Below are positions 7,876 through 48,926 of a stretch of DNA of 64,000 bases, in pieces. The translations under genes and the position numbers were made by a program. Below the pieces are notes generated by a model, which was not told the DNA's origin, made no database searches, and saw only the letters and a list, made by a program, of their open reading frames with translations. Within the stretch, counting starts at the first letter, position 1. The number at the start of each line of letters is the position of its first letter. The stretch is from assembly GCF_055900595.2 (NCBI RefSeq), contig NZ_CM148325.1. The stretch is one strand, 5' to 3'.

Positions 7876-8250
7876 GATGCCCTCCAATATGGTTATTTTT
7901 TATTGTGAATTAAGATAGGTGAGTACGACGTAAAAAGATGTGAAGCAAATCACATCAGTGTAATCGCTTACACTAACATTTATCTTAGTTATGATTTAAG
8001 TGCATGAAAATAATTGAGTTATATCATCATAGATTAAAGGTTGTTATCTGCAATTAAGACTTTACTGAAAAGAAATGTAACAACTGTGAAAGCTGAATAA
8101 TAATATGAAAATATTACAAATATTTGGCTGGTGTGGTTGGTGTAATCGATTTCAGTAGTGATGATAATTTGCGGTAAAACGTGTTGAGGAAGAATGATGT
8201 TATTGTGCGGGCGGTTTTTTGCCGGATGCGGCGTGAACGCCTGTCCACTG
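7876..8250 (-). promoter_or_regulatory. AT-rich galP upstream control region
   Basis: Long AT-rich spacer upstream of galP; the known galP promoter region of E. coli lies here. Individual operator sites not mapped. Confidence 0.4.
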
Positions 8251-15908: not shown

Positions 15909-16185
15909 GTTTTCTCTTCCGCACAAGGTCAGGATTATTCTAAAAATGCGCCGTTTGCAGGTGAATCGACGCTCAGTCTCAGTATAAGGAAAAGCGCAGC
16001 GGACGGGCGAGTGGATTGCGCAACATGCGAGCATGATCCAGAGATTTCTGAAGCGGCAAAAGGATGTTCCATGTACATGACGAGCGGCTTGCGGTAAATT
16101 GTTGGCAAATTTTCCGGCGTAGCCCAAAACGCGCTGTCGTCAAGTCGTTAAGGGCGTGCCCTTCATCATCCGATCTGGAGTCAAA

Positions 16186-18177
16186 ATGTCCTCACGTAAA
16201 GAGCTTGCCAATGCTATTCGTGCGCTGAGCATGGACGCAGTACAGAAAGCCAAATCCGGTCACCCGGGTGCCCCTATGGGTATGGCTGACATTGCCGAAG
16301 TCCTGTGGCGTGATTTCCTGAAACACAACCCGCAGAATCCGTCCTGGGCTGACCGTGACCGCTTCGTGCTGTCCAACGGCCACGGCTCCATGCTGATCTA
16401 CAGCCTGCTGCACCTCACCGGTTACGATCTGCCGATGGAAGAACTGAAAAACTTCCGTCAGCTGCACTCTAAAACTCCGGGTCACCCGGAAGTGGGTTAC
16501 ACCGCAGGTGTAGAAACCACCACCGGTCCGCTGGGTCAGGGTATTGCCAACGCAGTCGGTATGGCGATTGCAGAAAAAACGCTGGCGGCGCAGTTTAACC
16601 GTCCGGGCCACGACATCGTCGACCACTACACCTACGCCTTCATGGGCGACGGCTGCATGATGGAAGGCATCTCCCACGAAGTTTGCTCTCTGGCGGGTAC
16701 GCTGAAGCTGGGTAAACTGATTGCGTTCTACGATGACAACGGTATTTCTATCGATGGTCACGTTGAAGGCTGGTTTACCGACGACACCGCAATGCGTTTC
16801 GAAGCTTACGGCTGGCACGTTATTCGCGATATCGACGGTCATGACGCGGCATCCATCAAACGCGCAGTAGAAGAAGCGCGCGCAGTGACTGACAAACCGT
16901 CCCTGCTGATGTGCAAAACCATCATCGGTTTCGGTTCCCCGAACAAAGCCGGTACCCACGACTCCCACGGTGCGCCGCTGGGCGACGCTGAAATTGCCCT
17001 GACCCGCGAACAGCTGGGCTGGAAATACGCGCCGTTCGAAATCCCGTCTGAAATCTATGCTCAGTGGGATGCGAAAGAAGCAGGCCAGGCGAAAGAATTC
17101 GCATGGAACGAGAAATTCGCTGCTTACGCGAAAGCTTATCCGCAGGAAGCTGCTGAATTTACCCGCCGTATGAAAGGCGAAATGCCGTCTGACTTCGATG
17201 CCAAAGCGAAAGAATTCATCGCTAAACTGCAGGCTAATCCGGCGAAAATCGCCAGCCGTAAAGCGTCTCAGAATGCGATTGAAGCGTTCGGCCCGCTGTT
17301 GCCGGAATTCCTCGGCGGCTCTGCTGACCTGGCACCGTCTAACCTGACCCTGTGGTCTGGTTCTAAAGCAATCAACGAAGATGCTGCGGGTAATTACATC
17401 CACTACGGTGTTCGCGAGTTCGGTATGACCGCGATTGCTAACGGTATCTCCCTGCACGGTGGCTTCCTGCCGTACACCTCCACCTTCCTGATGTTCGTGG
17501 AATACGCACGTAACGCCGTACGTATGGCTGCGCTGATGAAACAGCGTCAGGTGATGGTTTACACCCACGACTCCATCGGTCTGGGCGAAGATGGCCCGAC
17601 TCACCAGCCGGTAGAGCAGGTCGCTTCTCTGCGCGTGACCCCGAACATGTCCACATGGCGTCCGTGTGACCAGGTTGAATCCGCGGTCGCGTGGAAATAC
17701 GGCGTTGAGCGTCAGGACGGCCCGACTGCGCTTATCCTCTCCCGTCAGAACCTGGCGCAGCAGGAACGTACTGAAGAGCAGCTGGCAAACATCGCGCGCG
17801 GTGGTTATGTGCTGAAAGACTGTGCCGGTCAGCCGGAACTGATCTTCATCGCTACCGGTTCTGAAGTTGAACTGGCGGTTGCTGCCTACGAAAAACTGAC
17901 TGCTGAAGGCGTGAAAGCGCGCGTGGTTTCCATGCCGTCTACCGACGCATTCGACAAGCAGGATGCGGCTTACCGTGAGTCTGTACTGCCGAAAGCGGTT
18001 ACTGCACGCGTTGCGGTGGAAGCTGGCATTGCTGACTACTGGTACAAGTATGTTGGCCTGAACGGTGCTATCGTCGGCATGACCACCTTCGGTGAATCTG
18101 CTCCGGCAGAGCTGCTGTTTGAAGAGTTCGGCTTCACCGTTGACAACGTTGTTGCGAAAGCAAAAGAACTGCTGTAA
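16186..18177 (+). CDS. tktA: transketolase 1 (663 aa)
   Basis: Track ORF trimmed 10 codons to [35 protein letters not shown]... Confidence 0.96.
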
Positions 18178-18194
18178 TCGGTAAGATGCTTTGT

Positions 18195-18222
18195 GAGAAG
18201 GGCCGCGAAAGCGGCCCTTTTT
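18195..18222. terminator. bidirectional terminator shared by tktA and the convergent SPFH gene
   Basis: agggccgcgaaagcggccct then ttttttt on the + strand; the SPFH stop codon abuts the T-run on the other strand. Confidence 0.7.
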
Positions 18223-19131
18223 TTACTTAGTAGAGATAAACGGAACTGTACTGCCGGGGATCATGGTATCGGGTAGCTTACCGTCCCAACGCTCAGCAGT
18301 GGTGAGGGCAACAAGTCCGGGATTATCCCGCAGAGCTTCACCGCGCAGGCGGATCGCTTCTGCTTCAGCCGCACTTTTTAAACGAATAGTTTCAGCCTCT
18401 GCCGCGCCTCTTACGCGAATAGTCTCAGCTTCTGCTTTGGCTGCCGCCAGTTTACTGTCTGCTTCTGCCTGGGCCTGAGTTACCGCTATTTGCGCCTGGA
18501 TTTTCTCTGTTTCCAGATTTTGCTTACGTGTGGCAATGGCGACTTCTGCTTTCATTCGATCTTCAATCGATTTTTCATAAGCGTCAGAAAAATCAATATT
18601 TTCAATCTGGACACCATCAATCACCACCGGGCCAACAACGGCTTTACGCATTGCATTTTGCAGATCCTGAACCAGTTTTGTACGATCCTGTACCGCGCTG
18701 ATGGCGGTATATTGGCCGAAAACGTTCTCCAGTTGAGTTGGCAACTGACGGACAATCAGACGATCTTTTAATGCTTCAATGGTGTTGTAGGTGGTATAAA
18801 CCGCGCCTGCTTCTGAAGGTTTAATGTGGAAGCTGACTGATACTGTCATTTGTGCCGGTTGCTGGTCGCGGCTGTAGGCCTGTAATCCCTGATAAACCAC
18901 AGCCTGATTACGCGTGGAAATTTTCTCTACGCTTTCCATAAAAGGGATCTTAAAACCCAGACCCGGCTCGGCAACTTTTACGATTTTTCCGTAGCGCAGC
19001 AAAATGCCGCGTTCACCTTCATTAACGGTGTAATACGAGAGAAATGGCAGCACAACCACGGTAATCACGCCAATGGCGATAGCAATAGATTTTTGTGGGC
19101 GAAATGAGGTTATTGAAACAGGTGCTTTCAT
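18223..19131 (-). CDS. SPFH/band-7 (prohibitin/HflC-like) membrane protein, 302 aa; not part of the K-12 tktA-cmtB arrangement
   Basis: aaggaag RBS 7 nt upstream of the ATG; N-terminal TM segment (IAIAIGVITVVVLPFLSYY), SPFH-like core (NEGERGILLRYGKI...), C-terminal Ala/Glu-rich 11-residue repeats. Confidence 0.8.
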   Translation of the reverse strand: MKAPVSITSFRPQKSIAIAIGVITVVVLPFLSYYTVNEGERGILLRYGKIVKVAEPGLGFKIPFMESVEKISTRNQAVVYQGLQAYSRDQQPAQMTVSVSFHIKPSEAGAVYTTYNTIEALKDRLIVRQLPTQLENVFGQYTAISAVQDRTKLVQDLQNAMRKAVVGPVVIDGVQIENIDFSDAYEKSIEDRMKAEVAIATRKQNLETEKIQAQIAVTQAQAEADSKLAAAKAEAETIRVRGAAEAETIRLKSAAEAEAIRLRGEALRDNPGLVALTTAERWDGKLPDTMIPGSTVPFISTK

Positions 19132-19506
19132 GAGAATCTTCCTTGAGTAAAGCGTGGGAATATGTCACATGAGGTGAGGAGAAAACAGCCAACAGGTGAG
19201 AATTCAGAATCTATAAAGGGGGAGAGCGAAAAACATCGGCTAAAAAAGTATGTTTTCGAACATTCAATAGATAAATAGAGATATGCATCACAAATACATA
19301 GGCAGATAAAACATTGGTTTTGTGATAAACATAGCAAACACAAACTTGACTTTATAAGTATAAATTTCATGTTGTTGTTATTTAACATTTTATTATTTTG
19401 GTTCATGTTTTTTTTCTTCTCGCGTGCCCAATTGCTTTCATTAAATCGCACGAGTATTTTATTTTTACCGCCGGACGGTACCCTAAAAATAAAATAAGGA
19501 TAATTT

Positions 19507-19950
19507 ATGCGGCTTATTGATTATTTTCCAGAATCATCAATCTCAGTTATACATTCAGCAAAAGATTGGCAGGAAGCTATCAATTTCTCGATGGCATCAT
19601 TGCTGGATAAAAACTATATCAGCGAGAATTACATTCAGGCTATTAAAGATTCCACCATTAACAATGGCCCTTATTATATTCTCGCACCAGGCGTGGCAAT
19701 GCCTCATGCGCGACCGGAATGTGGGGCGCTTAAAACCGGGATGTCTTTGACGTTACTTAAACCAGGCGTTTATTTTCCGGGGAATGACGAACCGATTAAA
19801 TTACTTATCGGTCTTTCTGCTGCCGATGCCGATTCGCACATTGGTGCTATTCAGGCGTTAAGTGAATTGCTGTGCGAAGAAGAAATACTTGAACAACTCT
19901 TAACTGCAACATCAGAAAAACAATTAGCGGACATTATCAGCCGCGAATAA
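19507..19950 (+). CDS. cmtB: PTS mannitol-family EIIA component, cryptic (147 aa)
   Basis: MRLIDYFPESSISVIHSAKDWQEAINFSMASLLDKNYISENYIQAIKDSTINNGPYYILAPGVAMPHARPE... matches CmtB. Confidence 0.9.
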   Translation: MRLIDYFPESSISVIHSAKDWQEAINFSMASLLDKNYISENYIQAIKDSTINNGPYYILAPGVAMPHARPECGALKTGMSLTLLKPGVYFPGNDEPIKLLIGLSAADADSHIGAIQALSELLCEEEILEQLLTATSEKQLADIISRE

Positions 19951-19977
19951 TGACTCTCTCCTCTACAGGATAATATT

Positions 19978-21366
19978 ATGGAAAACAAGTCTGCTCGTGC
20001 AAAGGTCCAGGCTTTTGGGGGCTTTTTGACGGCAATGGTCATCCCCAATATTGGTGCTTTTATTGCCTGGGGTTTTATTACTGCATTATTTATTCCTACT
20101 GGTTGGCTGCCTAACGAACATTTCGCCAAAATTGTCGGCCCGATGATTACCTATTTATTGCCCGTAATGATTGGTTCTACCGGTGGCCATTTAGTCGGCG
20201 GTAAACGCGGCGCAGTCATGGGCGGAATAGGGACAATTGGTGTAATCGTCGGCGCAGAAATCCCGATGTTCCTTGGTTCAATGATCATGGGACCGTTAGG
20301 TGGGCTGGTCATAAAATATGTCGATAAGGCACTGGAAAAACGCATACCTGCTGGTTTTGAGATGGTTATCAATAACTTCTCATTAGGTATCACCGGGATG
20401 CTCCTTTGTCTGCTGGGTTTTGAAGTAATCGGCCCGGCGGTGTTAATTGCCAATACTTTCGTCAAAGAGTGTATTGAGGCGCTGGTACATGCGGGCTATC
20501 TGCCTTTGCTGTCAGTCATCAATGAACCGGCGAAAGTGCTTTTCCTCAATAACGCGATAGATCAGGGCGTCTATTACCCGTTGGGGATGCAACAGGCTTC
20601 AGTTAACGGTAAATCCATCTTCTTTATGGTGGCGTCCAACCCTGGGCCTGGCTTAGGACTGCTGTTGGCGTTTACTTTGTTTGGTAAAGGGATGAGTAAA
20701 CGTTCTGCGCCCGGGGCGATGATTATTCACTTCCTCGGTGGGATCCACGAACTGTATTTCCCGTATGTGCTGATGAAGCCGCTGACCATTATTGCCATGA
20801 TTGCCGGCGGTATGTCTGGCACCTGGATGTTTAACTTACTGGACGGTGGTCTGGTGGCTGGTCCAAGTCCGGGGTCTATCTTTGCTTACCTTGCACTGAC
20901 GCCGAAAGGCTCGTTCCTGGCGACAATTGCCGGTGTTACGGTAGGTACCCTGGTGTCCTTTGCTATCACTTCCGTAATACTGAAGATGGAAAAAACGGTG
21001 GAAACGGAGAGCGAAGATGAGTTTGTGCAGTCCGCCAATGCGGTTAAGGCGATGAAACAAGAAGGTACATTCTCGTTAAGCCGGGTTAAGCGTATCGCCT
21101 TTGTTTGCGATGCGGGAATGGGCTCCAGCGCGATGGGCGCAACCACCTTCCGTAAGCGCCTGGAAAAAGCGGGGCTGGCAATAGAAGTAAAACATTACGC
21201 GATAGAAAACGTGCCTGCAGATGTGGATATCGTCGTTACTCACGCTAGTCTGGAAGGGCGCGTGAAACGTGTGACGGATAAACCGCTGATATTGATTAAT
21301 AACTATATTGGCGATCCCAAACTCGACACTTTATTTAATCAATTAACCGCTGAACATAAAAACTGA
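19978..21366 (+). CDS. cmtA: PTS mannitol-family EIICB component, cryptic (462 aa)
   Basis: Full-length match to CmtA; multi-TM EIIC followed by EIIB. Confidence 0.9.
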   Translation: MENKSARAKVQAFGGFLTAMVIPNIGAFIAWGFITALFIPTGWLPNEHFAKIVGPMITYLLPVMIGSTGGHLVGGKRGAVMGGIGTIGVIVGAEIPMFLGSMIMGPLGGLVIKYVDKALEKRIPAGFEMVINNFSLGITGMLLCLLGFEVIGPAVLIANTFVKECIEALVHAGYLPLLSVINEPAKVLFLNNAIDQGVYYPLGMQQASVNGKSIFFMVASNPGPGLGLLLAFTLFGKGMSKRSAPGAMIIHFLGGIHELYFPYVLMKPLTIIAMIAGGMSGTWMFNLLDGGLVAGPSPGSIFAYLALTPKGSFLATIAGVTVGTLVSFAITSVILKMEKTVETESEDEFVQSANAVKAMKQEGTFSLSRVKRIAFVCDAGMGSSAMGATTFRKRLEKAGLAIEVKHYAIENVPADVDIVVTHASLEGRVKRVTDKPLILINNYIGDPKLDTLFNQLTAEHKN

Positions 21367-23641: not shown

Positions 23642-24151
23642 ATGGCGACGCTGACAGAAGATGATGTGCTTGAGCAACTGGACGCACAGGACAATTTATT
23701 GTCATTTATGAAAACTGCATATGCCATTTTGCTCCAGGGGATACGCCAGTTTCTGCCGTCGCTGTTTGTCGATAATGATGAAGAGATCGTGGAATATGCA
23801 GTGAAGCCGTTACTCGCTCAAAGCGGCCCGCTTGACGATATTGATGTTGCGCTACGTTTGATTTTTGCGCTGGGGAAAATGGACAAATGGCTGTATGCCG
23901 ATATCACGCACTTTTCCCAGTTCTGGCATTACCTGAATGAACAGGATGAAACGCCCGGATTTGCCGATGACATTACCTGGGATTTTATCAGCAACGTCAA
24001 TAGCATAACCCGCAATGCGACGCTCTATGACGCGTTAAAAGCGATGAAGTTCGCTGATTTCGCCGTCTGGTCAGAGGTGCGTTTTAGTGGGATGGTCAAA
24101 ACGGCGCTGACGCTGGCAGTAACGACCACCTTAAAGGAATTAACGCCGTGA
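23642..24151 (+). CDS. yggD: MtlR-family putative regulator YggD (169 aa)
   Basis: MATLTEDDVLEQLDAQDNLLSFMKTAYAILLQGIRQ... matches YggD. Confidence 0.85.
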   Translation: MATLTEDDVLEQLDAQDNLLSFMKTAYAILLQGIRQFLPSLFVDNDEEIVEYAVKPLLAQSGPLDDIDVALRLIFALGKMDKWLYADITHFSQFWHYLNEQDETPGFADDITWDFISNVNSITRNATLYDALKAMKFADFAVWSEVRFSGMVKTALTLAVTTTLKELTP

Positions 24152-48479: not shown

Positions 48480-48559
48480 AAATTTCTCCTCTGTTGTTTA
48501 TTTGATACCCATCACACTTTCATCTCCCGGTTTTTTCGCCGGGAGATTTTCCTCATTTG

Positions 48560-48926
48560 AAATAAACTAATTTCACCTCCGTTTTCGCATTATATTTTCT
48601 AATGTCACGAATTTTTGATTTAGTGTTTTTTGACATTTTTTCAGTTCTTAATATTGCCTTATTCAAATTAAGTTTCTCATCACATCATCTTTGTATAGAA
48701 AATGGAATGTTTTTTGGTTTTTTATTCTGTTGTTATTCTGGCGTTTTTTAACCATAAGCTAATGTGATGATCAATTTTACCTTATGGTTAACAGTCTGTT
48801 TCGGTGGTAAGTTCAGGGAAAAGAGAACGATTGCGTTGGGGACCGGGAGTGGCTCCGATGCTGGGTTTCGTGGTGATAATTTCGCCATGGAAAAGTTGTC
48901 AGCCCCGCTTATTCAATGAGGACAAG
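48560..48926 (+). promoter_or_regulatory. AT-rich gcvTHP upstream control region
   Basis: About 400 bp AT-rich spacer between the ubiI terminator hairpin (tctcccggttttttcgccgggaga) and gcvT; in E. coli this region holds the gcv promoter and its regulator-binding sites. Sites not individually mapped. Confidence 0.4.

Follow-up and report, generated by a model that had tools for sequence, protein, structure and literature searches.

The window analysed here, a stretch of 64,000 nucleotides, is E. coli DNA and is 99.9% identical to strain 2013C-4282 over the SPFH-cmtB locus. By gene order, tktA ends at position 18177 on the plus strand. The mechanical list of open reading frames (ORFs) places its start at GTG 16156 (16156-18177), and the RefSeq-length product, of 663 aa, starts at an ATG 30 bp downstream. 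The neighbouring gene, on the minus strand (18223-19131), has an ORF of 302 aa belonging to the SPFH/Band_7 family (Pfam PF01145, E 5.6e-32) and is annotated in RefSeq as 'prohibitin family protein'. A spacer of 375 bp (19132-19506) separates it from the divergently oriented cmtB (19507-19950, plus strand), which by ORF and Pfam match encodes a PTS EIIA protein (PTS_EIIA_2). This is the first gene of cmtBA-yggPFDC, an operon named as such in the supplement of PMC3105977. It is followed by cmtA (EIIC-IIB; 19978-21366, plus strand, by gene order), yggP, a yggF/glpX-type FBPase gene, the MtlR-family gene yggD ('mannitol repressor', PF05068, E 5.5e-52; 23642-24151) and yggC. Located inside the operon, yggD is a candidate operon-specific regulator.

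The gap between the tkt and SPFH stop codons (18178-18222 in the window) varies between genomes, as a unit of ~186 bp occurs there in zero to two tandem copies. The window and Pseudocitrobacter have none, most E. coli, E. albertii and E. whittamii have one, and strain KK19-02 has two. The unit (L002:1579-1971; L003:1579-1785) includes REP-type palindromes, GCCGGATGCGGCG...CCTTATCCGGCCTAC, and a terminator hairpin, GGGCCGCGAAAGCGGCCC, bounds every copy.

The original prediction had described the spacer as a very AT-rich divergent region with A/T tracts, and its coordinates, layout, low GC content and excess of tracts were all confirmed. The GC content is 33.1% for the spacer and 27.5% for its core (19225-19424), compared with 51.7% for the window. 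The 300 bp with the lowest GC content in the whole window are those at 19241-19540 (28.7%), and the lowest 300 bp lying wholly within the spacer have 30.3%, a value as low as that being reached by only 0.2% of the 300-bp stretches of the window. The AT-richness of the spacer is not unique within the window, as similar values are found upstream of galP (7886-8185, 29.0%) and at 48494-48793 (29.7%). A/T tracts of at least 4 occur 13 times in the spacer, against 6.2 ± 2.2 in composition-matched shuffles (p ~0.004), and TpA is twice as frequent in it as in the window on average.

The SPFH-proximal part of the spacer (19132-19224, ~95 bp, minus strand) is absent from K-12-type and O157-type alleles. 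It contains a ribosome-binding site, AAGGAAG, at plus-strand positions 19138-19144, and two conserved blocks, GGAATATGTCACAT (19157-19170) and AATTCAGAATCTATAAAGG (19201-19219). Identity in this part is 81-97% among the SPFH-bearing alleles of Escherichia other than E. albertii, and 68-75% to E. albertii. The sequence preceding the SPFH orthologue of Pseudocitrobacter aligns with it collinearly and free of gaps, with CTTTATGAATTCTGAA taking the place of the CTTTATAGATTCTGAA of Escherichia, and the motif CTTTAT(A/G)(G/A)ATTCTGAA lies at an equal distance from the SPFH ATG in both. Because this part is lost together with SPFH in K-12 and is collinear with Pseudocitrobacter, we interpret it as the leader and promoter of the SPFH gene itself. 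A search by eye for sigma-E, sigma-32 and sigma-54 consensus sequences for the SPFH promoter gave nothing convincing, and published tables of transcription start sites yielded none for SPFH or cmtB.

The SPFH gene is carried by 1816-1828 of 5426 complete E. coli genomes (~34%) and is missing from the other ~66%. The SPFH-bearing arrangement is further found in E. albertii, E. whittamii, an additional Escherichia species and divergent 'E. coli' lineages. In Pseudocitrobacter, tkt adjoins SPFH and cmt is absent. Citrobacter, C. koseri and Atlantibacter show the arrangement without SPFH, with an intergenic region of 313-317 bp.

To score CRP sites, we built a weight matrix from the ETEC H10407 ChIP-seq sites (PMC4287617, Table 1), leaving out the site at cmtB. 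Two matches were found in the spacer. Site 1, AGAGATATGCATCACA (19277-19292), lies 230 bp before the cmtB ATG and scores 12.3 bits, and site 2, TGTGATAAACATAGCA (19321-19336), lies 186 bp before the ATG, 44 bp from site 1, and scores 12.2 bits; the median of the training sites is 13.0 bits. Sites of at least 12 bits number six in the 64 kb, two of them in the 375-bp spacer, where ~0.02 would be expected. The two other AT-richest 300-bp stretches of the window, upstream of galP and in the gcvT/visC region, also each hold a CRP site (7939-7954 and 48501-48516); these score 16.7 and 15.9 bits, respectively, and both match published CRP sites.

We then compared 18 sequences of the region, comprising 10 SPFH-bearing alleles of E. 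coli type, three from other Escherichia species, K-12, O157, two from Citrobacter and one from Atlantibacter. In all 18, the best CRP-like matches are located at about -230 and -186 from the cmtB ATG and exactly 44 bp apart. Their position relative to the ATG is shifted by 1-6 bp in four sequences, owing to small downstream indels. For site 2, scores range from 8.7 to 16.4 bits apart from one Citrobacter sequence (5.0) and two alleles of B2-type E. coli, in which the site is degenerate (4.1). The DNA between the sites is only ~50-85% identical across the sequences, and the sites themselves also vary: the window has AGAGA as the left half-site of site 1 and TAGCA in site 2, in place of the TAACA of most alleles. 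That positions and spacing are fixed while the sequence varies indicates selection on binding and on spacing.

The K-12 homologues of the two sites are CGTGTTGTAGATCACA (site 1) and TGTAATATGCATCACG (site 2). CRP ChIP-seq in ETEC H10407 placed a peak upstream of cmtB at TGTGATCTACAACACG, 16-fold above threshold and among the strongest (PMC4287617); this ChIP-seq site is the K-12 homologue of site 1 of the window. Genomic SELEX likewise identified CGTGTTGTAGATCACA, the K-12 homologue of site 1, as a CRP target, and the activity of a cmtB-lacZ fusion with the K-12-type allele falls in a crp mutant (PMC3105977). The cmt operon is not transcriptionally dead. Fused to lacZ, its cmtB promoter shows activity that can be measured in hns+ (wild-type) K-12 (PMC3105977), and in EHEC cmtB is up 4-8 fold in gut contents compared with M9-glucose (PMC6199705). 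By homology, we infer that CRP occupancy and CRP-dependence extend to the SPFH-bearing allele of the window. CRP, a documented regulator of the homologous K-12-type region, had been missed by the original prediction.

The promoter elements that these sites might serve are less distinct. A consensus scan for promoters and terminators over 18100-19700 found no sigma-70 match of at least 9/12, and our own promoter scoring returned no more than modest candidates. A distal cmtB promoter may be formed by TTGACT (19346-19351, plus strand) as a candidate -35 element, of which TTGAC (19346-19350) is invariant in the Escherichia alleles; paired with CATGTT or CATATT 16 bp downstream, it scores 6.5-9.1 bits. 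Alignments point to the block TGTTATTTAACAT (19376-19388, plus strand) as a possible distal -10 region, within which TGTTnTTTAA (19376-19385) is conserved across genera. Further upstream lies an imperfect palindrome, GTATGTTTTCGAACATTCAATA (19248-19269), which is conserved in all Escherichia alleles, partly so in K-12 (GTCCGTTTGCGGACAAGCAATA), and weakly outside Escherichia. Inspection of 19248-19269 by eye for Mlc/NagC or Cra sites revealed nothing convincing.

The block next to cmtB (19425-19506, plus strand) is nearly invariant, with 98% identity between the window and K-12, whereas the sequence just upstream of it is ~50% identical. It combines a -35-like TTGCTT (19432-19437) with a -10-like TATTTT (19455-19460) after a 17-bp gap, a perfect 13-bp inverted repeat, TATTTTATTTTTA/TAAAAATAAAATA (19455-19467 and 19484-19496), and the cmtB Shine-Dalgarno sequence AAGGA (19496-19500). 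These elements are conserved in Citrobacter and Atlantibacter, and in our scoring the proximal promoter candidate is the sole one present in all 12 alleles. The CRP sites lie ~138 and ~182 bp upstream of this proximal candidate, too far for direct class I or class II activation; their distances from the distal candidate are ~50 and ~95 bp.

In strain 14EC033, the spacer is interrupted by an IS1A element of 768 bp with a 9-bp target duplication, CGAGTATTT (L005:2886-3583; approximately 19450-19458 of the window). The insertion sits exactly at the proximal -10-like TATTTT and separates the CRP sites from cmtB.

The tkt-cmtB intergenic region of K-12 type measures 313 bp. From ~19240 rightwards it is collinear with the window without gaps, although the core is only ~48% identical; the left ~95 bp (19132 to ~19224) have no K-12 counterpart, and the last 82 bp before cmtB (19425-19506) are the only part that window and K-12 have in common at 98%. 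E. coli thus harbours two deeply diverged haplotypes of the region, with and without the SPFH module (18178-19424 of the window against L001:1579-1809). Their core identity of ~48% is no higher than that between SPFH-bearing E. coli and E. albertii (~51-54%). A recent deletion of SPFH in situ as the origin of the K-12 state was considered and rejected, since the K-12 core has diverged too far for that, and SPFH is missing from Citrobacter and Atlantibacter as well. O157:H7 carries a mosaic allele, K-12-like on the left and identical to one SPFH-bearing type from ~19375 rightwards, so that recombination breakpoints fall inside the spacer. In O157:H7 TR01 (L009:3320-3632), the tkt terminator hairpin lacks its right arm, GGGCCGCAAATGC being followed directly by TTTTTT, and this defective hairpin might permit read-through from tktA into cmtB.

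Among SPFH-bearing E. coli, identity is 72-85% over the 200-bp core, 96.5-98.5% for the SPFH gene and 95-97% for cmtB. With four-fold-site divergence of 0.05-0.21 in the flanking genes, the core changes up to about two times as fast as synonymous sites nearby. An earlier impression that the spacer evolves exotically fast was toned down in view of this twofold ratio and of the unusual diversity of the whole locus. Substitutions are saturating, yet ~230 bp align without any indel in sequences from three genera. In cmtA, the window allele shows four-fold divergence of 0.20 from the other alleles, which diverge from one another by 0.03-0.16. At four-fold divergence of up to 0.21, alleles of cmtA differ by only 0-4 of 333 residues, which indicates strong purifying selection. 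Alleles of cmtB differ by 5-9 of 148 residues at four-fold divergence of 0.02-0.15, and from these comparisons cmtB looks relaxed or fast-evolving.

We consider it likely that the spacer is a composite divergent region, in which the leader of the SPFH gene adjoins a long-standing, CRP-controlled control region of cmtBA-yggPFDC. The ~95 bp beside SPFH (19132 to ~19224) would be its leader and promoter, gained and lost with the gene, and the remaining ~280 bp would constitute the older control region. There, two cAMP-CRP sites 44 bp apart would lie upstream of one or two sigma-70-type promoters, namely the candidate distal promoter at ~19346-19390 and the almost invariant proximal one with its -10 TATTTT at 19455-19460. 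In the absence of glucose, CRP bound at both sites would activate transcription of cmtB. The AT-richness of the spacer would then probably reflect the normal make-up of a catabolite-controlled promoter region and not be the mark of recent acquisition. The view of the spacer as a divergent promoter region, also part of the original prediction, is supported; it is an ordinary region of this kind, largely already described.

The alternative that we regard as possible, though doubtful, is the one originally proposed, in which H-NS polymerises on an AT-rich, acquired spacer, shuts both divergent promoters and thereby makes cmt cryptic. It would fit the GC content of 27-33%, which is the minimum of the window, the twofold excesses of A/T tracts and TpA, the AT-rich 5' end of cmtB itself, the IS1 in the spacer of 14EC033 (IS1 favours AT-rich targets) and the presence/absence polymorphism of the SPFH gene; CRP sites combined with H-NS silencing are, moreover, the arrangement of the cryptic bgl operon. 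However, the in silico indicators of H-NS are weak. The nucleation motif TCGATAAATT has one match in the spacer, with two mismatches (19268-19277), and is not enriched across the window (74 matches against 62.6 expected). The 10-11-bp phasing of AA/TT in the spacer is not significant (p ~0.12), and the AT-rich tract is short (~300 bp). In full-text literature searches for cmtB or cmtA together with H-NS, the one relevant paper was that on CRP and H-NS in ETEC, and the peaks it lists are those of CRP only. The activity and CRP-dependence of the promoter in hns+ K-12 and the induction of cmtB in EHEC also speak against silencing, although CRP activation could be compatible with simultaneous H-NS repression, and H-NS may modulate the region as it does at bgl.

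As to acquisition, the layout of the cmtB control region and its GC content of 32-34% are kept in Citrobacter, C. koseri and Atlantibacter, which argues that the cmtB side was not recently acquired. The proposal of horizontal acquisition hence does not fit the cmtB side, where the architecture is kept across genera; only the SPFH gene and its ~95-bp leader behave as a presence/absence module.

A more elaborate reading takes the ~230-bp indel-free geometry as a fixed nucleoprotein switch, in which a repressor specific to the operon, such as YggD, has TATTTTATTTTTA-N16-TAAAAATAAAATA as its operator. The switch would consist of both CRP sites, TTGAC, the block TGTTnTTTAA and the near-invariant promoter embraced by the inverted repeat. 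The repressor, possibly together with H-NS, would keep cmt 'cryptic' until some sugar alcohol is present, and the E. coli haplotypes with and without SPFH would represent alternative wirings of the switch. We consider this whole reading improbable.

The proximal block could instead act at the RNA level, with the 13-nt repeat of a transcript from the distal promoter forming a 5'-UTR hairpin that controls the translation or stability of cmtB. The repeat is indeed perfect, encloses a variable insert of 16 nt and stands immediately before the Shine-Dalgarno sequence; both arms are conserved in Citrobacter and are paired with each other in the predicted minimum-free-energy fold. Yet the folding energy of the block is no better than that of shuffles (z = -0.6), the inner hairpin is unconserved, and compensatory changes are absent. 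The arms are low-complexity T- and A-runs that double as the -10 region and the A-rich context of the Shine-Dalgarno sequence, and the left arm would remain untranscribed if the proximal promoter were used. No Rfam family matched, a search of 17900-20100 at permissive thresholds giving chance-level matches only. Such an RNA role therefore seems distinctly unlikely.

It is very improbable that the spacer is mostly unconstrained filler, with CRP-like matches arising by chance in AT-rich DNA. The low identity of the core within and between the haplotypes, its change at about twice the four-fold-site divergence, and the lack of an Rfam match and of a strong promoter consensus would agree with such a view. 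Against it stand the ~230 bp kept free of indels across three genera, the best CRP-like sites at two fixed positions in 18 of 18 sequences, the published CRP binding and dependence, and the 98% conservation of the proximal block.

The ORF of 107 aa on the minus strand (19128-19451), whose TGA overlaps the SPFH ATG as ATGA, had previously been judged low in complexity and probably non-coding, and our comparison bears this out. The homologous frame is broken by 1-10 stops and/or by frameshifts in 11 of the 12 alleles or species compared, the window allele being the intact one, and the ORF has no Pfam match at E <= 0.01; as it is intact only here and lacks a Pfam family, it is not a gene. RefSeq annotates no feature within the spacer. 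On the plus strand, an ORF of 38 aa is broken in most alleles. Another, of 40-42 codons and ending in the cmtB Shine-Dalgarno sequence, is open in a number of E. coli alleles, K-12 among them, but its 42-aa form has lost its start or gained stops in L008, L005, L010, L017 and E. albertii. In its conserved part all three codon positions are invariant across genera, which indicates constraint at the nucleotide level rather than on coding. It is thus extremely unlikely that the 107-aa ORF or a plus-strand ORF of 38-42 aa is a real small protein translationally coupled to its neighbour; judged by their sequences, all of them appear to be chance frames in AT-rich DNA.

For the annotation of the locus, the label of H-NS-silenced foreign DNA would be replaced by that of a conserved CRP-controlled promoter region plus an SPFH leader, and the spurious ORF would be removed; the significance beyond annotation is little. 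The geometry of the control region, kept across genera, and the purifying selection on cmtA argue that the cmt operon, long called cryptic, has some natural condition in which it is used. The locus also offers a clear example of one intergenic region that occurs as deeply diverged haplotypes in one species while its transcription-factor sites are kept.

Among known systems, the bgl promoter resembles the region analysed here: its operon is likewise a cryptic one for a PTS sugar, the DNA upstream is AT-rich, and a CRP site is present. The bgl operon is CRP-dependent, its silencing by H-NS has been demonstrated, and it is activated by IS insertion; in the cmt spacer, an IS1 is found in one strain. 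The IS1 of the cmt spacer, in contrast, is located at the proximal -10 element, between the CRP sites and cmtB, and not in an activating position upstream of a CRP site.

The mtlADR promoter serves a paralogous mannitol-type PTS operon and has a long AT-rich upstream region with several CRP sites; the MtlR-family gene yggD within the cmt operon adds to this likeness. For mtl, the roles of the inducer and the repressor are established. The two regions differ in locus and sequence, and the cmt spacer has two CRP sites, not more. CRP ChIP peaks in the mtl region reach 27-fold (mtlA) and 45-fold (yibI) above threshold (PMC4287617). The CRP site TGTGATCTACAGCATG of the mtl region resembles the K-12 cmtB site.

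Finally, the tktA-cmtB region of K-12 differs from the window in lacking the SPFH gene and the left ~95 bp, in its core, which is ~48% identical, and in the sequences of its CRP sites (CGTGTTGTAGATCACA and TGTAATATGCATCACG versus AGAGATATGCATCACA and TGTGATAAACATAGCA). It nevertheless occupies the same locus, its last 82 bp are 98% identical, its CRP sites stand at -230 and -186, and its TTGAC is co-located with that of the window.
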